From a virus, in the UHGV virus genome UHGV-0044882: a stretch of 16,020 nt of DNA; one strand, written 5' to 3'. Below, piece by piece: positions 109-16,020 of this stretch (position 1 is its first letter; every line of letters starts with the position of its first letter). The position numbers were made by a program, and so were the translations under genes. The notes beneath the pieces are model-generated. The model saw nothing but the letters and a program-made list of their open reading frames with translations, searched no databases and was not told the DNA's origin.

Positions 109-942
109 TCAGCAATTGGTCAGAGTGTCAGCGGGGGCGTTACCGCCTGTTGCACGCTGGCGGTAGTCCTGGCGGCTGTCTTCATGACTCAGCTTGTCCA
201 CCAGTTCGTTAAAGGCGGTTTGCTGTGCCTGCAGGGCAGTCTCCAGCTCAGACAGGCGTTCTTCCTGCTCAGACAGGGATTTTTCGGTGCGTGCGCTCAG
301 GTTCTGCTGCTCAGTGGCGACCAGCTCCACGGCCTTATGCACATCAGAGAACCGGGCGTCATCGGACTGCTCTTTTTTGGTAAACAGCGCCGTGACGCGG
401 GCAAACAGGGACGGTTTGTCGTCCTGGACTTCTTCCAGTTCGATCACCGTTTCCTCTGCGGCGGTAAAGAGATTGGCGGGATTCTGCTTGCGGTTTGCCA
501 GCGGGTTATGGGCTGCACTGGCGCTGAATGTCAGCATTTCAGTGCCCAGACTGGCAGGGTCATCAGTGGCAGCCAGGCCGACCAGGTAGGCTTTGCCCGT
601 ATCAGCGAACTTCGGGCTGACTTCCATAGAGGTGAATAATTTCTGGCCTTTTTTCACCAGTTCCACCAGGGACTCCGTTGGCTCAACGTCAGCATACAGC
701 GCCATCTTGCCTGCCAGCGGACCTTCCGTGATTTCTTCAGCAAACAGCGCCGTCACCTTGCCGTAGCGGTTAAAGGTGCTGTCCGGCAGATAAGACTTGA
801 TGTGCTCAAGGTTAATCAGCGCGGTATACACCGCCGGGTTATAGCTGGCTGCCATCTGTTCCAGCCATTCACGCTGGATTTCGCGTCCGTCGGTGGTGGC
901 ACCTTCCACCCCGATGCGAAAACGCTTTGCTTTCACTGTCAT
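109..942 (-). CDS. O: Capsid scaffolding protein gpO
   Basis: 277 aa with RIGVEG..DGR, INLEH, YLVGLAATDDPASLGTE and C-terminal ATGG..C motifs typical of the P2 gpO scaffold family. ATG at 942..940, GGAG about 8 nt upstream. Confidence 0.9.
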   Translation of the reverse strand: MTVKAKRFRIGVEGATTDGREIQREWLEQMAASYNPAVYTALINLEHIKSYLPDSTFNRYGKVTALFAEEITEGPLAGKMALYADVEPTESLVELVKKGQKLFTSMEVSPKFADTGKAYLVGLAATDDPASLGTEMLTFSASAAHNPLANRKQNPANLFTAAEETVIELEEVQDDKPSLFARVTALFTKKEQSDDARFSDVHKAVELVATEQQNLSARTEKSLSEQEERLSELETALQAQQTAFNELVDKLSHEDSRQDYRQRATGGNAPADTLTNC

Positions 943-1084: not shown

Positions 1085-2851
1085 ATGAACACCACACTGA
1101 CACCCGCAGATCTCGATCCCCGTCGGCAGGCCATGCTGCTGTACTTTCAGGGATACCGCGTAGCCCGCATTGCTGAAATGCTGGGCGAGAAAGTTGCAAC
1201 CGTTCACAGCTGGAAAAAACGCGACAAGTGGGGTGACTATGGGCCGCTGGATCAGATGCAGCTCACCACCGCCGCACGCTACTGCCAGCTCATTATGAAG
1301 GAGCACAAAGAAGGGAAAGATTTCAAAGAGATTGACCTGCTGGCGCGCCAGTCGGAGCGCCATGCGCGGATCGGCAAGTTTAACAATGGCGGCAACGAAG
1401 CCGACTTAAACCCTAACGTCGCCAACCGCAACAAAGGCCCGCGCCGTCAGCCGGAAAAGAACGTTTTCACCGATGAACAGATTGAGAAGTTGGAAGAAAT
1501 CTTCCATTCCTCCATGTTCAACTACCAGCGCCACTGGTGGGAAGCCGGAAAAACCAACCGCATCCGCAACCTGCTGAAGTCACGCCAGATCGGCGCGACC
1601 TTCTATTTTGCCCGTGAAGCCCTGATTGACGCCCTGCTAACCGGGCGTAACCAGATTTTCCTTTCCGCCAGCAAGGCTCAGGCCCACGTCTTTAAGCAGT
1701 ACATCATCGACTTCGCCAAAGAAGTGGAGGTGGAGCTGAAAGGCGATCCGATGGTGCTTCCTAACGGGGCCACGCTGTACTTCCTCGGCACCAATGCCCG
1801 CACGGCCCAGAGTTACCACGGCAACCTGTATCTGGATGAATATTTCTGGATACCGAAATTCCAGGAGCTGCGCAAAGTGGCTTCCGGTATGGCTATTCAC
1901 AAAAAATGGCGACAAACCTATTTTTCCACGCCATCCAGCCTGACACACAGTGCTTATCCGTTCTGGTCCGGTGCGCTGTTCAACCGAGGGCGCAACAAAG
2001 CCGATAAGGTGGACATCGACCTGTCCCACAGCAATCTGGCCCCCGGCCTGCTGTGCGCAGACGGGCAGTACCGCCAGATAGTCACTGTGGAAGATGCGGT
2101 GCGCGGCGGCTGTAACCTGTTCGACCTCGACCAGTTGCGCATGGAGTACAGCCCGGACGAATACCAGAACCTGCTGATGTGTGAGTTCGTGGACGATCTC
2201 GCGTCTGTGTTCCCACTCAGCGAGCTGCAGGCGTGCATGGTGGACAGTTGGGAAGTCTGGACCGACTTTCATGCACTGGCCCTGCGCCCGTTTGGCTGGC
2301 GCGAAGTGTGGATCGGATATGACCCGGCGAAAGGTACGCAGAACGGCGACAGCGCCGGATGCGTGGTGGTGGCGCCGCCAGCCGTGCCGGGCGGTAAGTT
2401 CCGCATTCTTGAGCGTCACCAGTGGCGCGGAATGGACTTCCGCGCCCAGGCTGACGCCATCAAAAAACTGACCGAACAGTACAACGTGACCTATATCGGT
2501 ATCGACTCAACCGGCGTTGGTCACGGGGTTTACGAGAACGTGAAAGCGTTTTTTCCTGCCGTCCGGGAGTTTGTCTACAACCCCAACGTTAAAAACGCCC
2601 TGGTACTCAAGGCCTACGACATTATCAGCCACCGCCGTCTGGAGTTTGACGCCGGACACACCGACATAGCGCAGTCCTTTATGGCAATCCGTCGCGCCAC
2701 CACCGCCAGTGGCAACCGCCCGACCTATGAAGCCAGCCGCAGCGAAGAAGCCAGCCACGCCGATCTGGCCTGGGCAACGATGCACGCACTGTTTAACGAA
2801 CCGCTGCAGGGCGAATCCGCCAATACCAGCAATATTGTGGAGATTTTTTGA
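1085..2851 (+). CDS. P: Terminase ATPase (large) subunit gpP
   Basis: 588 aa, matching P2 gpP in length and position (upstream of Q, divergent from O). Stop TGA 2849..2851 overlaps the Q ATG at 2851. Confidence 0.9.
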   Translation: MNTTLTPADLDPRRQAMLLYFQGYRVARIAEMLGEKVATVHSWKKRDKWGDYGPLDQMQLTTAARYCQLIMKEHKEGKDFKEIDLLARQSERHARIGKFNNGGNEADLNPNVANRNKGPRRQPEKNVFTDEQIEKLEEIFHSSMFNYQRHWWEAGKTNRIRNLLKSRQIGATFYFAREALIDALLTGRNQIFLSASKAQAHVFKQYIIDFAKEVEVELKGDPMVLPNGATLYFLGTNARTAQSYHGNLYLDEYFWIPKFQELRKVASGMAIHKKWRQTYFSTPSSLTHSAYPFWSGALFNRGRNKADKVDIDLSHSNLAPGLLCADGQYRQIVTVEDAVRGGCNLFDLDQLRMEYSPDEYQNLLMCEFVDDLASVFPLSELQACMVDSWEVWTDFHALALRPFGWREVWIGYDPAKGTQNGDSAGCVVVAPPAVPGGKFRILERHQWRGMDFRAQADAIKKLTEQYNVTYIGIDSTGVGHGVYENVKAFFPAVREFVYNPNVKNALVLKAYDIISHRRLEFDAGHTDIAQSFMAIRRATTASGNRPTYEASRSEEASHADLAWATMHALFNEPLQGESANTSNIVEIF

Positions 2852-3885
2852 TGGGAAAGAGTAAGAAGAACCGCGCTGCGGCGACGAAACAGATCCAGCT
2901 TAAAAGTCAAACTACAGCCGAAGCATTCAGCTTCGGCGATCCCGTTCCTGTTCTGGACCGCCGAGAACTGCTGGATTATGTGGAATGCGTACAGATGGAC
3001 CGTTGGTATGAGCCGCCCGTCAGCTTTGACGGACTGGCGCGCACCTTCCGCGCCGCCGTGCATCACAGTTCCCCGATTGCAGTAAAGTGCAACATTCTGA
3101 CCAGTACCTATATCCCTCATCCGCTGCTCAGCCAGCAGGCTTTTTCGCGTTTTGTGCAGGACTATCTGGTATTTGGTAACGCCTACCTGGAGAAACGCAC
3201 GAACCGATTCGGTGAAGTTATCGCTCTTGAGCCTGCGCTTGCAAAATACACCCGACGCGGATTAGACCTAGATACCTACTGGTTTGTGCAATACGGTATG
3301 ACAACCCTGCCGTATCAGTTCACGAAAGGCAGCATTTTTCATCTGATGGAACCGGACATCAACCAGGAGATCTACGGCCTGCCCGGTTATCTTTCTGCCA
3401 TTCCGTCAGCCCTGCTCAACGAGTCCGCCACGCTGTTCCGCCGCAAGTATTACATTAACGGTAGCCATGCAGGCTTCATCATGTATATGACCGATGCCGC
3501 GCAGAACCAGGAAGATGTGAACAACCTCCGCAACGCAATGAAAAGCGCCAAAGGCCCTGGCAACTTCCGCAATCTGTTTATGTACTCGCCTAACGGCAAA
3601 AAGGACGGACTTCAGATTATCCCGTTGTCAGAGGTCGCAGCGAAGGATGAGTTTTTGAATATCAAGAACGTGAGTCGGGATGACATGATGGCAGCACATC
3701 GTGTGCCGCCGCAAATGATGGGGATTATGCCGAGTAATGTTGGGGGGTTTGGGGATGTGGAGAAAGCCAGCCGCGTCTTTGTTCGCAACGAGTTGATACC
3801 TCTGCAGAAGCGCCTTCAGGAATTGAACGACTGGCTTGGAGAAGAAGTCATGCGTTTTGAAGATTATAATTTAGGTATTGAATGA
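2851..3885 (+). CDS. Q: Portal (capsid portal vertex) protein gpQ
   Basis: 344 aa from ATG 2851 (the track's first M is TTG at 2848), the same length as P2 gpQ. Translationally coupled to P (TGATG). Confidence 0.88.
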   Translation: MGKSKKNRAAATKQIQLKSQTTAEAFSFGDPVPVLDRRELLDYVECVQMDRWYEPPVSFDGLARTFRAAVHHSSPIAVKCNILTSTYIPHPLLSQQAFSRFVQDYLVFGNAYLEKRTNRFGEVIALEPALAKYTRRGLDLDTYWFVQYGMTTLPYQFTKGSIFHLMEPDINQEIYGLPGYLSAIPSALLNESATLFRRKYYINGSHAGFIMYMTDAAQNQEDVNNLRNAMKSAKGPGNFRNLFMYSPNGKKDGLQIIPLSEVAAKDEFLNIKNVSRDDMMAAHRVPPQMMGIMPSNVGGFGDVEKASRVFVRNELIPLQKRLQELNDWLGEEVMRFEDYNLGIE

Positions 3886-3890
3886 AATTT

Positions 3891-3917
3891 AAAAGCCTGT
3901 ACAAACAGGCTTTTATT
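3891..3917. terminator. Bidirectional rho-independent terminator between convergent Q and the three-gene operon
   Basis: Stem aaagcctgt / acaggcttt with loop acaa, flanked by an A-run on one side and ttttatt on the other. Seen directly in sequence. Confidence 0.55.
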
Positions 3918-3954: not shown

Positions 3955-4620
3955 TTAAAGATCCGGATCTACAGGCTCATGATATAGATTTACAGGGTAA
4001 TGAATAACTTCATAATTCAGTTGAGTAACTGTGTGAACATGCTGGCTATAAAAAACCAATGGATTTTTTTGACAAGGAGTAATCGTTATAGATTTACAGG
4101 CATGAATTCTTGGTGCGAATTTATCTAAATGCGCCTTCCAGTTGCTCATCATTTCATTACATTTTCTATTACGAGTATAGATAATCAATCCACCACTTGC
4201 GCTGTCTACGGTCCCTGTACTATATCGTTCAGTGAGTTGAGCATACCCTTTAAATAAATAACTATATGAAGATGTATGTTTTTTGGCTTCGCCATGCCAA
4301 ATATAATCCTTTAGTTTTATTGTAATATCACAATGTCCGCGCTGATTATTTTCATGAAATGCTTCAATGCCCATATCTTTATTTTTGATATTGGCCAATA
4401 AAATTAAAGTAAGCTGATCTTCTGTTAAATCGAAGTTTAACTTATTTGAATTCTCTTCTATTTCCTTTACAGCAGAATCAAGTTCAATCCTGACAAATTG
4501 TTTGAAATTATCGTACGATTGAAGTGCAAATCTAACACGAGTAATAGAAGCATTAATACGCTGAAGAAAAATATCATTATCAATATCAGCCAAACTCATT
4601 GCTGCAGACATTTTTAACAT
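3955..4620 (-). CDS. Hypothetical protein, third gene of the AT-rich operon; weak PD-(D/E)xK-like nuclease motif
   Basis: 221 aa, ATG 4620..4618 overlapping the stop of the upstream gene (ATGA), stop TAA 3957..3955. Segment GHCDITIKLKDYIWHGEAKKH has a D then E-x-K spacing compatible with a PD-(D/E)xK core; this is inference by eye, not a domain hit. Confidence 0.6.
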   Translation of the reverse strand: MLKMSAAMSLADIDNDIFLQRINASITRVRFALQSYDNFKQFVRIELDSAVKEIEENSNKLNFDLTEDQLTLILLANIKNKDMGIEAFHENNQRGHCDITIKLKDYIWHGEAKKHTSSYSYLFKGYAQLTERYSTGTVDSASGGLIIYTRNRKCNEMMSNWKAHLDKFAPRIHACKSITITPCQKNPLVFYSQHVHTVTQLNYEVIHYPVNLYHEPVDPDL

Positions 4621-5054
4621 CAGATAATATCCTTTGATTTAGATTCATCTAATGTAAAAAAAGGAAATACGAATGACTTATAGTCATACATAAGCTCCCC
4701 TGTAAATGGGTTTGCTAAAGATTGACTGATTTCCGCCTCAATAACTTCCTCTATTTCAAGTTCTACAGGGTCATGAAAATCATCAATGAACCAATAATTG
4801 AGTTTTAAAAAATCAACCTTTGGGCTACAAAGAATTTGTATGGCCGGATAGATAACCTGCTCATACGTTTCTGGCTGTAAAACCTTATTATAACCACCAG
4901 CTATATTAAATAAATCCTTATAACTTAAGGCTATATTTGATGATTTTTTAGCCCTTGCCTCGATTTCATCGTACAAATAGCAAGCTAACGCCCCAATTTC
5001 AGGGCGTTCTGCACACATTTCTTTGATGATCTTGGGCATATCACCATCCTTCAT
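4620..5054 (-). CDS. Hypothetical small acidic protein, middle gene of the AT-rich operon
   Basis: 144 aa from ATG 5054..5052 (track lists a TTG start at 5066). GGAG 7 nt upstream. Stop TGA overlaps the start of the downstream gene at 4620. No recognisable motif. Confidence 0.55.
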   Translation of the reverse strand: MKDGDMPKIIKEMCAERPEIGALACYLYDEIEARAKKSSNIALSYKDLFNIAGGYNKVLQPETYEQVIYPAIQILCSPKVDFLKLNYWFIDDFHDPVELEIEEVIEAEISQSLANPFTGELMYDYKSFVFPFFTLDESKSKDII

Positions 5055-5066
5055 TGCTGACTCCAA

Positions 5067-6173
5067 TTATAATATCAGCTTTGTGAGGGTTTCGAAATCA
5101 TCTTTGGATATACATTTACTTAATATAGCATAGTTAACAGGAGAGCAACTACTCCCTCCTAGATGCCTGCGGAGTGTTCCCGGAATGATAAGCTCTACGT
5201 TATCCGCTAATTGCAGTTTTGGATTATTTCTATCAACTCTAATTCCAATACGATACAAACCAATACTGCCTACTGCTTTGATGCCTTCCTTATTAAACAA
5301 ATCATCACGTAAGTCTTTAGTGGCCACATTTTTCTTTTCTTTATGCGTAGTCCCCTCATTCGTCAAAAATGACAAATCAAAGACTTTATAGCTTAATTTT
5401 GAATAAGGCAATGAATTTTGTTTGAAAATTAGCTCAATTAACGGATAAAAATCTTTTTCCGATGATTTAAATTCATAACCGACATGATTATACAATTCAC
5501 GAATAATGTTACTCTTTGCAAAAGTAACATTATCACCAATAATATTACCATTAGTATCTACCAAAACATGAATTTTATTAGTAACAGAGTCTAATATACA
5601 GACATCAAAACATTGTCGCTTTTCTTTTCGCTTTGCAATAATTTCATCAAACTGCTTGTATTGCGCAAGTGCTGACGGGGGAATTTTTTCTCTTACAACT
5701 AATTCTCTGACAGATGAAAAAACAAGTATTGACTGGGTGTTTTGAATAGAATAATTAACAAGTTCAGGTTGATTTTTTACAGCATTTTGCAATTGGACAT
5801 CATCAAGGATCGAATCAACCAATAATGATGGTTGATTCATCAAATTCCATTGAAAACTAAATCTGTCATTTAGTGTTTTAATTACACTATTATCTACAGT
5901 CAAACTAAATATTGCTTTTTCACCATAAACGACCTGACCAAAAATTAGGTCATTTACGTTTGCCATAATGCCATCAAACTTTTGCCTATCTTTACTTTTA
6001 AGATCAATGAGGCTTTCTAGTATTTTTTCGTTTGTTGCTTCACGCCCCCTACCTGTTGGCAGCCCTAAAGACGCAATAATTGGCCTTGCAACGTTCCATG
6101 TGAAACGTTCAGTTAAGGTCAAGATCGACTTTAACTCAGACTCAGAAAGCACTACTGGGACACTACCTGTCAT
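5067..6173 (-). CDS. Hypothetical protein, first and largest gene of the AT-rich operon
   Basis: 368 aa from ATG 6173..6171 (track lists GTG at 6182), AGGTG 7 nt upstream, stop TAA 5069..5067. No Walker A, HExxH or nucleotidyltransferase motif found by eye. Confidence 0.62.
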   Translation of the reverse strand: MTGSVPVVLSESELKSILTLTERFTWNVARPIIASLGLPTGRGREATNEKILESLIDLKSKDRQKFDGIMANVNDLIFGQVVYGEKAIFSLTVDNSVIKTLNDRFSFQWNLMNQPSLLVDSILDDVQLQNAVKNQPELVNYSIQNTQSILVFSSVRELVVREKIPPSALAQYKQFDEIIAKRKEKRQCFDVCILDSVTNKIHVLVDTNGNIIGDNVTFAKSNIIRELYNHVGYEFKSSEKDFYPLIELIFKQNSLPYSKLSYKVFDLSFLTNEGTTHKEKKNVATKDLRDDLFNKEGIKAVGSIGLYRIGIRVDRNNPKLQLADNVELIIPGTLRRHLGGSSCSPVNYAILSKCISKDDFETLTKLIL

Positions 6174-6322
6174 AACTTGCACCTAGTCATCCAAAAAGCA
6201 ATAAGAATTTGCTCTTGTCTTAATTTATCCTTCGATACCTAACAAATTACCTCAATGTTGAAAAAATTTGCAAGCCATTTGCTTCTAAAAAGCGACCTTA
6301 CTCAGAGTGTTACAAAACTAAG

Positions 6323-6351
6323 CGAGCGCGCGCTCGTATCCCCGCCACGCC
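6323..6351 (-). other. Candidate cos (cohesive end) site with adjacent GC palindrome
   Basis: Reverse complement of 6333..6351 is GGCGTGGCGGGGATACGAG. Its first 13 nt match the 186 cohesive end as I recall it (GGCGTGGCGGGGAAAGCAT); 14 of 19 match P2 (GGCGAGGCGGGGAAAGCAC). The G-rich strand is the one expected downstream of Q. A 14-bp palindrome cgagcgcgcgctcg sits at 6323..6336. Confidence 0.45.
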
Positions 6352-6372
6352 TGCCCGCTTTGTGTAGTGGTT

Positions 6373-6476
6373 TTCATGCAGGTGCATGACATAAGCAAAA
6401 GCCCGCCAGAACTGGCGGGCCTGCATCAAAACGATCCTCAAACGATCATGCGTTCTCATGCAGCATAGTCATGCAC
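6373..6476. repeat. Cluster of short iterated motifs beside the cos-like site
   Basis: TCATGCA(G/C) at 6374..6381, 6456..6463 and 6469..6476, plus an inverted copy at 6383..6390 forming a dyad with the first. AAACGATC direct repeat at 6429..6436 and 6440..6447. Confidence 0.4.
6396..6420 (-). terminator. Rho-independent terminator, minus strand
   Basis: Stem gcccgccag / ctggcgggc (6401..6420). On the minus strand it is followed by TTTTGCTTAT. Confidence 0.45.
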
Positions 6477-6699: not shown

Positions 6700-7692
6700 T
6701 TACTCAACGGTCACAACTATTTTGCCGACCTGTCCATTGGACTCCATATAGCGCTGGGCGTCTGCAATCTCTTCGAACGGGAACGTCTTATCGATGACCG
6801 GCTTCAGTTTGCCGACTCGCAAGCCTTCTGTGATAAAGGATTTAGCGCGCGCCATTTTTTCAGAGTCCGTCGTGATTTCAAACAGCTCATATCCACGCAG
6901 GGTGAGATGCTTACCGAGAATATCAAATACAGGCACAAGCATGTCACGGCTATCGAGCGCGCCGTACTGGAAAAACATACCCTGTGGTGCCATCACCTGC
7001 GTCAGTTTTGCCACGTCCGGCCCACCGACGGGATCAAAAACAATATGGGCACCTGCGCCATCTGTTGCACGACTGATTTCAGCAACCATATCCTGCTCCG
7101 CAGTAGCAATGACGGCGGCTGCGCCAGCTTTAAGGAGCATTTCGCTTTTTTCAGAGGTCCGTGTGAGTGCAATTGGGTTTGCACCCAGCATGTTAGCAAT
7201 CTGTATGGCAGCCAGACCCACGCTGCTTGATGCTGCGCGGATCACGACATTCTGACCAGCCTGAAGGTTGCCATACTCAACCAGCGCACCATAAGCGGTG
7301 ACATACATCATCCAGCTTGCGGCGGCTTCCTCGAATGAAAGGTTTTCAGGATGCTTTACGACAGCATGAACCGGTGCGTTGACCACTTCACCATACATGC
7401 CGTATTCATTAAACATAAATGAAGGGATCACGCTTACCCGATCTCCAGTGGTAAACTCATCTACATTCTCACCTACTGCCTGTACAACGCCGGCCGCTTC
7501 ATAACCAAGACGTGCCGGAAATTCCGGCTCAATAACATATTGGCCGTTGCGGTACATGATTTCTGCACGGTTGATACCTATCGCATGTACGCGGATCTGC
7601 ACTTCACCCGCTGTCGGTGCAGGCACCTGCACATCAACAACTTCCAGCACTTCCGGGCCACCGGTGCGGTTAAAGGTAATAACTTTAGACAT
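6700..7692 (-). CDS. MDR-superfamily NAD(P)H:quinone oxidoreductase-like (zinc-type alcohol dehydrogenase family)
   Basis: 330 aa from ATG 7692 (track TTG at 7698). N-terminus MSKVITFNRTGGPEVLEVVDV and a Gly-rich nucleotide-binding stretch AASSSVGLAAIQ resemble E. coli Qor-type quinone reductases. Confidence 0.85.
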   Translation of the reverse strand: MSKVITFNRTGGPEVLEVVDVQVPAPTAGEVQIRVHAIGINRAEIMYRNGQYVIEPEFPARLGYEAAGVVQAVGENVDEFTTGDRVSVIPSFMFNEYGMYGEVVNAPVHAVVKHPENLSFEEAAASWMMYVTAYGALVEYGNLQAGQNVVIRAASSSVGLAAIQIANMLGANPIALTRTSEKSEMLLKAGAAAVIATAEQDMVAEISRATDGAGAHIVFDPVGGPDVAKLTQVMAPQGMFFQYGALDSRDMLVPVFDILGKHLTLRGYELFEITTDSEKMARAKSFITEGLRVGKLKPVIDKTFPFEEIADAQRYMESNGQVGKIVVTVE

Positions 7693-7841
7693 ATTCAACT
7701 CTCTTCAGTTAAAGGCACACCTTCAGAATAATGCCGAAGGGATGCCCGAATCATTTGTGAACAATCTACGTTGTTACGAACACACCAGAAATAGCTGAGA
7801 GGGAACTTCAGTATTAATTATCCATTAACAATCCGCCTGCT

Positions 7842-8744
7842 TCAGCGGATCTGCGTGGCCAGAATATCACTGAACCAGTCGATAAAGACGCGCACTTTTG
7901 GAGAAAGGTAGCGCCTGTCGGGATACATCACTGACACGGGCTTTGACACCGATGGGTATTGCGGCAGAATCTCTTCAAGAGCGCCGGAAGCAATATGGGG
8001 AGCAACGGCATCATAGGTAGCCTGGATAATGCCCAGACCAGCCAGAGCACAAGAAAGCAGAATATCGGAATTATCAACCAGCAGGCTGCCCGCAGGACGT
8101 AGCGAAACAATGCTCCCGTCTTCGATAAACTTCCATTCCATGACGTCACGACTGTGGTCGCTAAAAAAGTTAATTGCCCGATGTTTATCCAGATCCGCAA
8201 GTGTTTCTGGCCGCTCATGCTGCTGCAGGTAAGACGGGGCTGCACAGGTAACCATCCGGATGTCACCAAGACGTCTGGATATAAAACTAGAATCTTGAAG
8301 CGCCCCCAGGCGGACAAGGCAATCTACGCCTTCCGTAATCAAATCAGTTTTTTTATCGGAAGAAACCAGCACAACTTCAATACCTGGATACAGTGCCTGA
8401 AAATGCCTGAGATTAGGGATCAATATGGAATGCGCCAGCGCCAGGGGCACATCAAGTCTCAGGCGTCCTCGCGGTGGAAGTGTCGGTGAAAAACTGGCCA
8501 TCATGTCATTAACTTCGGCCAGAACATGCCTAGCATGATGATAGAACTCATCCCCTTCAGCAGTAACGCTCAGCTTTCGGGTTGTGCGATAAATGAGTTT
8601 TACACCCAGATCATGCTCTATCTGCTGTATCGCTTTGCTCACAGTGGGGCGATGAATCTGAAGTACATCAGCAGCTTTCGTGAAGCTACCCTGCTCAACA
8701 ACCTGTATGAAAATATTTAGGTATTCAATCATGTTGGCATGCAC
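7842..8744 (-). CDS. LysR-family transcriptional regulator (LTTR)
   Basis: About 300 aa. N-terminal HTH signature VVEQGSFTKAADVL..PTVSKAIQQIEHDLGVKLIYRTTRKLSVTAEG followed by a co-inducer domain. Start is GTG 8744 (AGGTGA 5 nt upstream) or ATG 8732. Confidence 0.85.
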   Translation of the reverse strand: MHANMIEYLNIFIQVVEQGSFTKAADVLQIHRPTVSKAIQQIEHDLGVKLIYRTTRKLSVTAEGDEFYHHARHVLAEVNDMMASFSPTLPPRGRLRLDVPLALAHSILIPNLRHFQALYPGIEVVLVSSDKKTDLITEGVDCLVRLGALQDSSFISRRLGDIRMVTCAAPSYLQQHERPETLADLDKHRAINFFSDHSRDVMEWKFIEDGSIVSLRPAGSLLVDNSDILLSCALAGLGIIQATYDAVAPHIASGALEEILPQYPSVSKPVSVMYPDRRYLSPKVRVFIDWFSDILATQIR

Positions 8745-8966: not shown

Positions 8967-9200
8967 TCAGTGTAACCAGCTGTCGTCTTCCCAGACCTGC
9001 TGCAGAATTTCCATTACACGTTCCTTATCTTCAGCCTGTCTTACCCCGCTAAGTTCAATACCATTGGCGCTGCCCTTGCGGATTCGGATAGCTGTTTTTG
9101 GGTAGAGGGGGCGCAAATTTCGGTAAAGCTCGGATTCAAGTGCTTCTAAAAGCACCTGGCTAATTTTCTGCTCTTTATCGATCATTATTTCAATGCGCAT
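8967..9200 (-). CDS. DinI-family protein
   Basis: 77 aa from ATG 9200 (MRIEIMIDK..). Aligns by eye with E. coli DinI along its length, including the C-terminal EILQQVWEDDSW versus DinI EILQETWESADDW. SD AGGGGA upstream. The track ORF extends to 9245, but the internal ATG fits the family. Confidence 0.8.
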   Translation of the reverse strand: MRIEIMIDKEQKISQVLLEALESELYRNLRPLYPKTAIRIRKGSANGIELSGVRQAEDKERVMEILQQVWEDDSWLH

Positions 9201-9210
9201 AGATTTTCCC

Positions 9211-9399
9211 CTAACAGGTAACGTCCATTGTTCGGCTGTATTCATGGTTGCGGATTTTCGCCATCAGCTCGTCAGTCAGCTCGGAAACCCACTGGATGGC
9301 CAGCCCCTTCTCTTCATCACTACACTCACTAGCCGCTACAAGCTTAAGAAAAAAATCAATGCGCTGGAGCTTCAAAGACTCCAAAAAATAGTCCTGCAT
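9211..9399 (-). CDS. Small SOS-regulated protein; possible Tum-like antirepressor N-terminal module
   Basis: 62 aa, ATG 9399..9397 with strong SD AGGAGG 5 nt upstream. Lies directly downstream of a LexA operator; stop TAG is 10 nt before the DinI-like ATG. Function inferred from position only. Confidence 0.5.
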   Translation of the reverse strand: MQDYFLESLKLQRIDFFLKLVAASECSDEEKGLAIQWVSELTDELMAKIRNHEYSRTMDVTC

Positions 9400-9551: not shown

Positions 9552-11972
9552 TTAATACAGCTCCCGCCACTTATCATCTTCCTGCAAACGCTGGTTCCGA
9601 TAGAAGATACGCAGGCCTGCTCCTGACGGAATACTGCCGCCGCAAAGGAGTAAATCGACTTCTTTCTCGCTGCCATCAAATCCTCTGGACTTCAGTTCAT
9701 AGACGAGCTGCTGTCGCTGATGGTCTGTAATTCGCTGTTTGTAGTCTTTACGCCGTTTCGGTTTCACCTGGCGTAACCTTGCAGCCAGTTCCCGGCGCTC
9801 TTTTTTGCTCATACTGTGCAGGTAATCGTGCAACTCCTTGTCATCCATGCGGGTAATGTCCGTTCTGGTATCCCCATCAGCTGATTTGTCGTTCCCTTGT
9901 TGGCTCAAATTTTCAGCAAGGGGACAGTTATTGCCACGAGTCCGAGTCCAAGGGGCGCAAGCGCCCTGGTCGGCTGCCGCCTCCTGAACGTCAACGGCCT
10001 TACGAACCATTTTCCACTTCACGGCATGAGTGCAGATCTTGCCCTCTGCAATAGGTGACCAGATGCCATAAATACGAATGCCGTGATCGCCATAGACGGT
10101 CGGCTCTTCGTTGATTTCATAAGCAGTTCTGATGAGGTGATATTTGCGGGGAACCAGTACGCCACCCTGCTTCATGATGTAGGTGGCAAAACAACCAGCA
10201 TCAGCAGCAGCCAGAATGGCATCAAGGCGCGGGTTATCCAGTACCGGCGCACCTGCTTTTTTGTCCCCCTGTTGCCTTGCCGCCTGACCAGCCAGCAATC
10301 GCAGTTCACGGTAAGCCTGACGCCCCGGAATGCCAAAGAAGCGGAATTGCTGAACACGATGCAGAGACGCCCAGGCATTAACGTATTCAGCATTCTCACG
10401 CAGGGATTTCCCCGTTTCCTTGCTGATCTCGCCAGCCAGACCACGCCCGTCAATGTTCTTACTGATGTATTTCGCGATGTAGCTTGTTGGCGTACCTTTG
10501 CGCGGGTTAATCAACTCAGACTTAAAGCGCGGCCCAGTGTTATTGCCCAGCTCCTCGCGGTCTTCACGGATGGCAAACTTACGCAGTAATGCAGTGATGG
10601 TGCGGCGGTCTTTTTTGCGCATAAAACACAACAGGTGCCAGTGAACTGTACCGTCATGATGCGGCTCAGCCACCCGCACGCCATACCACCGCAATCCGGC
10701 TTTGTGCATCGCCTTACGAAATGCAGCAAACATGCCGACCAGATAATCACTGCTTTGTCTTACCGTCGCATTTGTCCAGGTTGGGTTGGGCCTGCCGTTA
10801 TTTAGCGTGGAATGGAAACGTGACGGACAGGTGATGGTGTAGAAAACGGCGCAGTCACCGCGCATTTCCGCGATAAGCTCCAGACCTTTAACACAGGCCA
10901 TCATCTCATTGCGGCGATGCGCCGGGTTGCTGCTGCTGGCGTTTACCACATCCTCCATGTCCAGCGTGTCGCCCTCTTCGTTCACCAGTTCATGAGAACG
11001 GAAAAACTCCAGCGACTTACGGCGCTGCTCACGTTTATGCATCACGGCTTCATAGCTGACATAAGGAGATGCTTTTTTGCTGACAAGGCAGACTGCACGC
11101 AACTGCTCTTCCCGCCATTCGCAACGCATCTTCCATAATTTCCGATACCACCAATCGGCGCACAACATACGCGCCAGCGAACCCGGAATGAGTTCATAGG
11201 GCACGGGTTTACGGCGGTTTCTTTTCCGACGGAGTTGCTCAAACGCAGGCGGGATGACATCCAGACGCAGGGTTTCCGCTGCCACCCTTTCCCATGTATT
11301 GCGGATTTCTTCTGGCTTAACGTCATCGGTGGCATACAAATCGCCACAAGCGGCATCAAGGCACATACTCATATGCGCAGCTACCAGGGTGGACAGGCGT
11401 TTCACCTGATCCTGACTCATTTCAGGCAGGATCAGCAGGCCGTCCAGCCCTTCATGGCTTGCCATAAAGCGAAAAGATGCAGATAGCTGACTGTCGCGTA
11501 CATGCTCCAGTCGTTCCAGACATGGCTTAATCGTCTCACGTAAATAGCGGGAATAAGCCTTTGGCCTGCCCAGGCTGCTGAAGTATTCAATACGTTGCAT
11601 CAGCGGCTTGCTGATATGGGAAGGCTGGGCGTTGACGTCCGCCAGAATGACCATATCCGGATTAAAACGCTGCTGCTCATGCGCCAGCTTTGCCCGACTA
11701 ATGAGCTTATCCTGTTCCATTTCGCGCTGGACAGGATCACGGGATTCATTAAAGAAATAACGCTCCCAGACCTGATCACTCAGCGCCTCACGGCGCAGCT
11801 GTTCCTGCTCGTTATCGGCAGCGTACAGAGTGATCAGGTTTGAAAGCGTAGAAACCGGCGCAACTTCCACCGGGTCCAGATAAGGGTTAATGGCCTTTTT
11901 CGGGCTGTTCCATGAGAACGATGCGGCAGCTTCGTTAAAGCCGCAGCAGTTGTTCATATCGGCATGACTCAT
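9552..11972 (-). CDS. A: Replication initiation protein gpA (rolling-circle nicking endonuclease)
   Basis: 806 aa at the position of P2/186 gene A. Contains a paired-tyrosine segment YIAKYISKN of the kind found in gpA-type initiators. ATG 11972 overlaps the Dam stop. Confidence 0.85.
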
Positions 11973-12826
11973 GCACGTACTCCGTACACGGCAGAACTAT
12001 CCACGCCACGCGAATAATCAAATCCCACCCAGCAGCGCGGCCCGGAAACAGCAATGATTTCTGTTGCTGATTTACCCTCGCCAGCTGCCACACCGATGCT
12101 GCGTTTTGCCTTGATGTAGTGGTGAGTAAAATTGCGATACAGCGAACGGATCAGGGATGTGTCACTGTTAGAAACAATGACCGGATGTCCTTCTGATGAC
12201 CGATGTTCAAGAACAGATGCCAGGTGATACTGGTCATCTTCAGTGAAGCCGTCAGTGTGATAGCCGGAAAACGTACCGTCATACGGCGGATCGCAATACA
12301 CCACATCCCCCGCCTTCAACATCGCCAGCGTTTCATCAAAGCTGGCGCAGATAAACGTTGCTCGCTGGGCCTTTTCTGCAAATGCGCGAATTTCTTTTTC
12401 AGGGAAATACGGATTTTTATAATTACCGTAGGGAATGTTGAAATGCCCGCTCTTGTTATAGCGACATAAACCACGGTAACCGTGACGATTGAGATACAGG
12501 AAATATACCGCTTTCATGAAATCAGTAATTTCAGTGGAGTAATTAAACTCCTGCCTTATGTTGTAATAAGCCACCTCCCTGTTTGCGATCTCAAATAAAA
12601 CTCTGGCGCGAGATATAAACGATTCACAATCAGCGGCAACCTTTTTATAGAGGTTTATTAAATCAGGATTAATATCCGCAACCAGATAGCTGGGGTAATC
12701 CGTCTCCATCATCACAGCACAGGAACCCGCGAAAGGTTCAACCAGTCGCGGGCCAGCAGGAAGGTGTTTTTTCAGTTCGGACATAATGGCGGTTTTATTT
12801 CCCGCCCATTTCAGGATGGTGCTCAT
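11969..12826 (-). CDS. dam: Dam-type DNA N6-adenine methyltransferase (orphan)
   Basis: 285 aa from ATG 12826 (the track ORF starts 20 codons upstream). Motifs [16 protein letters not shown] (AdoMet site), [15 protein letters not shown] and catalytic DPPY align with E. coli Dam as recalled. GGAGGTG SD upstream. Confidence 0.9.
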
Positions 12827-13050
12827 ACAGCACCTCCGTTGTAATGTTTGCCTTTCAGCTCTGCGATTTCCTGGCAGGTAATGCAAAGATGCACTCCCGG
12901 AATGGCGCGGCGTCGTGCTGGCGGAATTGGCGCTTCACATTCAATACAAAGCACGCGAGACACGCCCGGTGTTTTGGCACGGGCAGCACGAATATGGCGC
13001 TGGCGTTCTTCTTCAACGCGCTGCTGTACGAGATCCATTGCATCAGCCAT
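12823..13050 (-). CDS. TraR/DksA-family C4-type zinc-finger protein
   Basis: 75 aa with CIECEAPIP and CITCQ (CxxC-N17-CxxC), typical of phage and plasmid TraR-like proteins. Stop overlaps the Dam ATG; start overlaps the stop of the upstream ORF. Confidence 0.75.
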   Translation of the reverse strand: MADAMDLVQQRVEEERQRHIRAARAKTPGVSRVLCIECEAPIPPARRRAIPGVHLCITCQEIAELKGKHYNGGAV

Positions 13051-15036: not shown

Positions 15037-15606
15037 GTGGATTTCAATAGCGGCGGTAAGAAAGCCATAGAACGTTTAGTTGAAGCATATGGGTTCGGTA
15101 CCCGTCAGGCTCTCTGTGATCATTTAGGTGTTTCTAAGAGCACCATGGCAACGCGCTATATGCGTGATATTTTTCCAGCAGATTGGGTAATCCAGTGCGC
15201 CCTTGAAACGGGCACCTCGCTTAATTGGCTAACAACAGGGCATGGTTCAAAGCAAGCATCAGCAAATACAAATACTATGGAAGTTGCTAAATATGTATTA
15301 TCTGATGGGGCCTTGTGTGAAGACGGTTTTTATATTTTCGATAGGGAATTTCTACCGTCGGCATTCAAGAATATTTTTGCAATCACAGATAATAATTCTG
15401 AATTTATTTGTGATAAGGAATTTGATGATATACGTGATGGTAAATGGGTAATAAGTATTGATGGCGAAATAACGATCCGTGACATTACTCGTTTACCCGG
15501 TGGAAGAATCTTCGTCGAGGGTGGAAACAGAGCCTTCGAATGCAAGATAGAAGACATTGAAATAATTGGTAAAATTATAAGTTTAACAGTCAAGTATGTT
15601 AAATAG
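15037..15606 (+). CDS. cI: CI-type immunity repressor (186 CI family)
   Basis: 189 aa from GTG 15037 with GGAGGA 4 nt upstream (the longest ORF starts at GTG 14950). N-terminal HTH region [23 protein letters not shown] and a C-terminal oligomerisation-type domain. Length is close to 186 CI (192 aa). Confidence 0.72.
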
Positions 15607-15622
15607 TACCGGGAGGAAAACT

Positions 15623-15814
15623 ATGCTTGGTAAGGTATTTTTTGTGGTTTTGTCATGTTCTTTGTTATTAAACCCACTAACTACCTATGCTAGAAATTAT
15701 CCCTGTTCAGGGAAAAAGGGAGGTGTTTCTCACTGTACCTCAGATGGCAAATTTGTTTGCAATGATGGAACTATTAGTAAATCCAAAAAAATCTGTACTA
15801 AAAACTCACGATAA
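15623..15814 (+). CDS. Small secreted Cys- and Lys-rich peptide (predicted signal peptide)
   Basis: 63 aa from ATG 15623 with GGAGGA upstream. Hydrophobic N-terminus [23 protein letters not shown], then a roughly 40-aa mature part with 4 Cys. AT-rich. It lies where int directly follows cI in 186. Confidence 0.45.
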
Positions 15815-16020
15815 CTTTTGCTTTTATATCTGCGCCTAAAATAAAAATGAGCCGCAGGTTAACCGCAAAAATTACATGCTCACATAGCAAAAAGAATAGC
15901 CAACTTAATTATGGCTTCAGTGAGATGTATGGTCGTAGGATTTCATACATTGACACTGGTTATACATGGGTCTTCCCCGATCATGGTGGGAAGGCTCAGA
16001 ACTCCATATTCAGCTTACCG

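Follow-up and report, generated by a model that had tools for sequence, protein, structure and literature searches.

The analysed window, a stretch of 16,020 nucleotides (nt) from the virus genome UHGV-0044882, belongs to a P2/186-type Escherichia coli prophage. Between the portal gene Q and a cos-like site it carries three co-directional minus-strand genes (positions 3955-6173) coding for 368, 144 and 221 amino acids (aa), referred to here as genes and proteins 1, 2 and 3 and together as the cassette. The cassette is probably an autonomous immune operon with a nuclease effector, directed against phages (or mobile elements) and carried as cargo of a variable slot next to cos. A first-pass annotation made from the sequence had already proposed a candidate defence operon, and this reading is supported by the variable slot, the mobility of the genes as a unit and fusions to restriction-modification (R-M) and TIR enzymes.

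Locus and gene layout

The features that define the locus are as follows.

109-942, minus strand: scaffold gene O
1085-2851, plus strand: terminase gene P
2848-3885, plus strand: portal gene Q
3890-3915, between the end of Q (plus) and the end of gene 3 (minus): bidirectional intrinsic-terminator-like hairpin, 11-bp stem, T-runs on both strands
3955-4620, minus strand: gene 3, 221 aa
4620-5054, minus strand: gene 2, 144 aa
5067-6173, minus strand: gene 1, 368 aa from ATG; alternative GTG at 6182
6174-6332, minus strand: leader and presumed promoter region, about 160 nt from cos to gene 1, conserved between the window and an 85% variant of the cassette
6333-6351: cos-like core, aligning with the 19-nt P2 cohesive end
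6422-6399, minus strand: strong intrinsic terminator upstream of cos and cassette, 10-bp stem with 7 GC pairs, T-tract
9552-11972, minus strand: replication gene A
11969-12886: phage Dam methylase gene, part of the 186-type backbone and outside the cassette

The cassette is a translationally coupled, terminator-bounded operon of foreign composition. In most respects this agrees with the first-pass annotation: the TAA of gene 1 is followed by a 12-nt spacer, including GGAG, in front of the gene 2 ATG, and genes 2 and 3 do overlap. Only the form of the overlap has to be corrected from ATGA to TGATG, in which stop and start have 1 nt in common. The claimed AT-richness is found as well, with GC contents of 0.341, 0.352 and 0.329 for genes 1, 2 and 3 (33-35%) compared to 0.51-0.57 (51-57%) for O, P, Q and A, and the hairpins at 3890-3915 and 6422-6399 provide the proposed terminators on either side. 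Overall, the region holds 10 terminator-like sites against 2.1 expected from shuffled sequence. The terminator at 6422-6399 would stop read-through from the cargo and replication genes on the right.

The cos-like site beside the cassette, likewise part of the first-pass annotation, was placed by alignment. Positions 6333-6351 align with the P2 cos segment and 6327-6419 is near-identical to that of pFR109, a cloned P2-hotspot fragment; the cassette is therefore located between Q and cos. The presumed cos sequence of phage 186 gave no match within 3 mismatches.

Occurrence and slot occupancy

Among 5426 complete E. coli genomes the cassette was found in 21, nine times at >99% identity and twelve times as the 85% variant, and it is always annotated there as three hypothetical proteins. 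About 1245 E. coli genomes, and also many P2-like phages, contain the adjacent cos flank, so that the cassette accounts for about 1.7% of the P2-type cos regions of E. coli. The slot between Q and cos is occupied by an AIPR-family gene or a KAP-type NTPase in other P2-like prophages of this species. The variable occupancy presumed at the outset was thus observed, and together with the cos-proximal position between gpA and gpQ it corresponds to the cargo of the defence hotspot that Rousset et al. 2022 defined in this region of P2-like phages.

The same three genes, in unchanged order and tightly coupled, are kept together across several types of element.

P2/186-like prophages of E. coli and Pantoea: three-gene unit
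P4-like satellites or islands of Providencia and Rouxiella: three-gene unit adjoining the primase, in a variable slot
Lambdoid prophage of Klebsiella: three-gene unit
P2 remnant of Serratia: three-gene unit beside a PRTase-CE/NADAR pair

A distant protein 1 profile extended this distribution to the Alphaproteobacteria, where nine of ten genomes carry the complete unit, the tenth contig being truncated. The unit was further found in all 14 divergent viral contigs and in 41 metagenomic loci. Flanking genes are mostly integrases, phage regulators and structural genes, with a TIR protein and a helicase in Agrobacterium; a recurring fourth gene was not found around the copies. Identities between the window and its variants range from 84/83/90% for proteins 1/2/3 down to 25/21/29%.

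P2-like prophages have a cos-like motif of P2 type, GGCGTGGCGGGGATA...GCGCGC, at a distance of about 150-170 nt upstream of gene 1. It recurs in the Rouxiella P4-like island, the Serratia P2 remnant and the Klebsiella lambdoid prophage (window, 6333-6351; loci L009, L011, L012 and L014, at about 7840-7870), which suggests that cassette and cos flank are transferred together. A P2/P4-type element is the probable source of the Klebsiella copy.

Several carriers deserve individual mention. A P2-like prophage of E. coli MS 115-1 contains the cassette with 99.6% identity (NZ_CP146665.1, 3090827-3093045; L001). This strain is widely used as source of a model CBASS system, so a natural host for genetics is already available in many laboratories. 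In the degraded P2-like element of Serratia ureilytica (L011, 5836-7474) the PRTase-CE and NADAR genes stand directly upstream of the cassette, and further upstream a phospholipase-like protein and ankyrin-repeat proteins are encoded, which suggests a small defence island. Klebsiella pneumoniae BIDMC 36 (L012, 11009-14268) has a Gp34/S74 tail-spike-like gene after the cassette, as well as a bacteriocin with a pyocin S/cytotoxic domain and a cloacin-type immunity gene, a cluster of competition genes in one prophage. In an Agrobacterium metagenome-assembled genome (L043, 7541-8608) a 355-aa protein with TIR_2 domain and coiled coil is encoded convergently to the operon copy; genes for a Helicase_C protein and for an unannotated protein of 736 aa are located upstream.

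Predicted nuclease

Protein 3 is predicted, on the basis of its modelled structure, to be a PD-(D/E)xK nuclease with BamHI-like fold. An N-terminal helical hairpin (residues 10-56) precedes an alpha-beta-beta-beta-alpha-beta core of the restriction-endonuclease-like type. The first-pass annotation had suspected such a core and was right in this, with the exception of the residues D111, E125 and K127 that it named. The core is formed by D98...E111-x-K113, and positions 125 and 127 are occupied by Gly and Ala. The enteric, alphaproteobacterial and TIR-linked homologues share D98, E111 and K113 without exception, and (E/D)90 is conserved among them. Together these four positions make up the catalytic set, with the D...(D/E)xK residues placed on strands 2 and 3.

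Top fold matches of protein 3 are restriction endonucleases and not recombination nucleases of the lambda-Exo or RecB type; McrC and the NucC of E. coli MS 115-1 are among the matches, too. A profile search of the protein 3 family against PDB sequences returned no match. With the Type II enzymes BamHI, OkrAI, BstYI and BglII, protein 3 has the PD-(D/E)xK fold in common, without sequence similarity to any solved structure. It differs from this family by the additional N-terminal hairpin, by the missing cognate methyltransferase and by its presumed dependence on the partner proteins 1 and 2. No linked methyltransferase, as would be expected for a Type II R-M system, was found in the cassette or beside its P4-like, lambdoid and alphaproteobacterial copies. 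P2 old/tin is cargo of the same P2 hotspot; the cassette has no sequence similarity to Tin, and kinship of protein 3 with P2 Tin was ruled out by hhalign (probability 0.1%).

Protein 2 and its pairing with protein 3

Protein 2 is small and acidic, with an isoelectric point (pI) of 4.4, resembles an adaptor and contains the conserved motif HPxTGE...(D/N)(Y/F)....PFF. It evolves fastest of the three proteins, and relatives were detected neither in PDB nor in Pfam. The enteric and alphaproteobacterial forms were connected by hhalign (probability 98.9). Proteins 2 and 3 always occur together. A distant protein 3 homologue (38% identity) is encoded after a 458-aa protein in which a TIR domain and transmembrane helices are combined with a protein 2 domain at the C-terminus; the match of protein 2 to this C-terminus is strong (hhalign probability 99.75%, E 3e-27).

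Metagenomes were then scanned with a broad protein 3 alignment. In 16 loci a long protein ending in a protein 2 domain is encoded directly upstream of protein 3, and at all six junctions that were checked the stop and start overlap, five times over 4 nt and once over 11 nt. Type ISP R-M enzymes with ISP_coupler, N6_Mtase/Eco57I and Type_ISP_C domains account for ten of the 16 fusions and ResIII-type helicase proteins for three, of which one has a RE_endonuc domain; two fusions carry a FeeM-like acyltransferase domain and the last is unannotated. Further TIR-protein 2 fusions were sought in viral contigs and not found. Taken together, the 16 loci and the TIR fusion identify proteins 2 and 3 as a conserved pair with an interchangeable front partner, which usually is a recognised immune or restriction enzyme. 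The two fusions to FeeM-like N-acyl amino acid synthases (L076, 755-1918; L078, 24-1184), each followed by the nuclease gene, are unexpected as the partner does not act on nucleic acids.

In the ten Type ISP loci the R-M enzyme (LlaGI/LlaBIII type) takes the place of protein 1. Type ISP enzymes possess helicase, methyltransferase and specificity domains, none of which is encoded by the cassette in the window. The characterised Type ISP enzymes are not known to have such a C-terminal domain or partner nuclease. As a concept, protein 2 can be compared with the effector-associated adaptor domains in bacterial conflict systems that Kaur, Burroughs, Iyer and Aravind reportedly described in 2020. 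Alike is the small domain on diverse sensor or enzyme cores that seems to recruit a separately encoded effector. In contrast, protein 2 is found on one partner only and also exists free-standing.

The coupling of an acidic protein 2 to a predicted DNase gene is also what would be expected of a toxin-antitoxin or addiction module. Protein 3 would then be a DNase toxin, protein 2 its co-translated antitoxin and protein 1 a regulator; the module would stabilise the prophage or satellite, any protection being incidental. We consider this improbable. Protein 2 also forms part of Type ISP and Res-type enzymes of >1100 aa, and because of this fusion it cannot serve there as a free, labile antitoxin. 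Protein 1, for its part, is conserved in the stand-alone form with the same strictness as the pair and lacks features of a helix-turn-helix-type regulator. Moreover, the elements and slots that carry the cassette are defence hotspots.

Fold of protein 1

Protein 1 (368 aa, pI 8.5) is assigned from its predicted structure to the RdgC/RexA/IML3/CHL4 fold, as defined in PMC11077077, and is presumed to be the DNA-binding component. The model shows the two-domain alpha+beta architecture of the RdgC type. An exhaustive profile search delineated a family of 428 clusters at 50% identity, nearly all of them full-length (340-380 aa). Apart from scattered single marginal matches, no Pfam or PADLOC model was recognised in 105 sampled members of this superfamily, and the RdgC profile PF04381 matched neither protein 1 nor these members; profile searches against PDB sequences were negative as well. 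In accordance with the first-pass annotation, which had noted that the large protein lacks Walker A and HExxH motifs, neither motif occurs in any of the three proteins. The basic residues R23/K50/K86/R156/R289 are conserved and, together with the pI, are at most suggestive of a ring or horseshoe dimer binding double-stranded DNA.

RdgC, a recombination-associated E. coli protein that forms rings and binds double-stranded DNA, and RexA of the lambda exclusion system RexAB are shorter than protein 1, with 303 and 279 aa, and show no relationship to it at the level of sequence. In RexAB, RexA is paired with the membrane protein RexB, whereas the partners of protein 1 are an adaptor-like protein and a predicted nuclease. 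A RexB-like multi-pass membrane protein is absent, since none of the three proteins contains a transmembrane segment (maximum 19-residue hydropathy 1.07).

The fold of protein 1 also leads to a second alternative, a phage module for recombination, replication or lysogeny control. It would combine an RdgC-like modulator of RecA or DNA transactions with a structure-specific nuclease, or bias the choice between lysis and lysogeny as reported for RexA. Among viral structures, those closest to protein 1 carry the annotation recombination-associated protein RdgC or exonuclease. The Klebsiella lambdoid copy occupies the interval from the replication genes to Q, which is the position of the nin recombination genes. 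According to PMC11077077, RdgC regulates RecA and RexA affects the lambda switch. Nevertheless, such a module is very unlikely in our view. Its presence in only about 1.7% of the E. coli P2-type cos regions marks the cassette as dispensable cargo, and foreign composition and terminator insulation point in the same direction. P4-like satellites, whose size is constrained, carry it in their variable slot, the pair of proteins 2 and 3 is found joined to R-M enzymes and to a TIR protein, and the top matches of the nuclease are restriction endonucleases instead of recombination nucleases.

Relation to described systems

The locus has been noticed before. Precisely this cassette is entered in Table S5B of Rousset et al. 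2022 as curated system #91, for which 36 occurrences and no domains are given; it does not appear in their table of cloned systems. For the 85% variant, protein 1 was called a "predicted novel defense gene" by DefensePredictor (log-odds about 8.4; DeWeirdt et al. 2026), and no sign of the cassette was found among the 94 operons tested in that study. The system suggested in the first-pass annotation as possibly undescribed is consequently uncharacterised, as stated, and nonetheless already catalogued and machine-predicted. PHROGs places the proteins in three families, all of unknown function. Assigned folds, a mechanism or a phenotype are absent from the literature on the cassette. No prior description was found of the fold assignments, of the occurrence in Alphaproteobacteria or of the way in which Type ISP, Res-type, TIR and FeeM-like proteins reuse the pair of proteins 2 and 3. 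Our literature search for RdgC-like defence components yielded only the RexA paper.

The nearest counterpart is Rst_3HP, the validated "hp+hp+hp" system of pFR109 (Rousset et al. 2022), which is found at the same locus and likewise is a three-gene operon of hypothetical proteins without domains. Its proteins differ in size (about 335/358/227 aa, compared to 368/144/221 aa). Identity of the two systems was ruled out, as BLASTP and phmmer against the three pFR109 proteins gave no significant match (best E 0.39 for BLASTP, none better than 0.09 in either search) and PADLOC no match at all. None of the systems Crouga, Bandua, Aernus, Toga, Reve and Hailong (Moura de Sousa et al. 2026) corresponds to the cassette. 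The YejK/NA37 system of DefensePredictor is a different, single-gene system, and the protein 1 family has no NA37 match.

Proposed function

The defence reading draws on the defence-rich hotspot with its variable slot, the mobility of the intact unit, the predicted folds, the swapping of modules and the DefensePredictor call. A mechanism may be sketched as follows. Protein 2 would dock the protein 3 nuclease and possibly restrain it. In the stand-alone form, protein 1 would bind DNA as an RdgC-like dimer and fill the place that a DNA-tracking restriction enzyme has in the fused forms. It may recognise a feature of invading or replicating phage DNA, e.g. free ends or intermediates of replication or recombination, and via protein 2 deliver or release protein 3 for DNA cutting. 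The outcome could be restriction acting directly on phage DNA or an abortive infection caused by damage to host DNA. The specific role of protein 1 as sensor is put forward with less confidence than the explanation as a whole.

Some observations weigh against this interpretation. The three proteins have no significant match in PADLOC, Pfam or NCBIfam, and the checks proposed initially (Pfam, PDB sequences and PADLOC) did not recognise any known family or system. Protein 1 resembles RdgC in fold only: the Foldseek TM-scores are about 0.3, so its domain arrangement differs from that of RdgC and RexA, and hhalign gives probabilities of 0.5% against E. coli RdgC and 0.2% against RexA. The RdgC fold is used by phage recombination proteins, too, and DNA binding of RexA was reported in PMC11077077 as not strictly required for exclusion. 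The adaptor role of protein 2 is deduced from gene and domain architecture. Neither a methyltransferase nor another evident self-protection is encoded that would explain how the host is spared by a constitutively expressed nuclease. No promoter of the operon was located: a sigma-70 consensus scan 5' of gene 1 gave no convincing candidate and an alignment of the upstream DNA across copies no conserved one. Only about one third of the hotspot systems cloned by Rousset et al. 2022 protected against their phage panel. Finally, a protection test or phenotype of the cassette was not found in the literature, and for this reason it remains a candidate.

A third explanation is restriction of the Type IV kind, methylase-less and dependent on modification, in which protein 1 would read modified or marked DNA and protein 3 would cleave it without killing the cell. 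The similarity of protein 3 to true restriction endonucleases, including the McrC match, is consistent with this, as are the lack of a methyltransferase in the cassette and its copies in other elements and the fusion of proteins 2 and 3, as a pair, to genuine R-M enzymes. We regard it as unlikely, since Pfam reveals no modified-base reader domain (SRA, YTH, PUA or DUF3578-type) in protein 1 and RdgC-type proteins bind DNA non-specifically according to PMC11077077. It would, in any case, be a special case of the proposed immune operon and not a true alternative to it.

Going beyond the cassette itself, it is conceivable, though rather doubtful, that proteins 2 and 3 represent an unrecognised, widespread plug-in module, in which a docking domain and its own BamHI-like nuclease are added by bacteria and phages to immune front ends as diverse as Type ISP and Res-type restriction enzymes, TIR and FeeM-like enzymes, the stand-alone form being a new family in which a clamp of RdgC fold senses invading DNA. 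If so, the RdgC/RexA fold would gain a general role in phage sensing.

Should the immune operon prove protective, it would add a widespread family, present in Alpha- and Gammaproteobacteria on P2-type phages, P4-type satellites and other prophages. The RdgC/RexA fold would obtain an immunity function beyond the long-unsolved Rex system, and established restriction enzymes, namely of Type ISP, would be shown to be able to bear an additional nuclease by means of a specialised adaptor domain. With a defined catalytic triad and a clone of 2.4 kb the proposal is directly testable. It also illustrates that structure prediction combined with fusion analysis can resolve some "hypothetical" arrangements of prophage hotspots into sensor, adaptor and effector.

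Further observations in the window

On the other side of cos, towards gpA, the window carries cargo of non-phage type (6700-9245).

6700-7698, minus strand: zinc-type alcohol dehydrogenase/quinone oxidoreductase
7842-8744, minus strand: LysR regulator
8967-9245, minus strand: DinI-like protein

Other carriers of the cassette have different genes between cos and gpA, e.g. a DUF6694 lipoprotein in MS 115-1, and the two sides of cos therefore vary independently. To the right of replication gene A the Dam methylase and the CI repressor are encoded. Directly after the CI repressor gene follows a second stretch of low GC content (15150-16020, 35-38%), which may be another moron slot.

15596-15814, plus strand: open reading frame of 72 aa with signal-peptide-like N-terminus and several cysteines, no Pfam match

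In PA45B, a DUF4041 gene is located at the place equivalent to 15150-16020 of the window.

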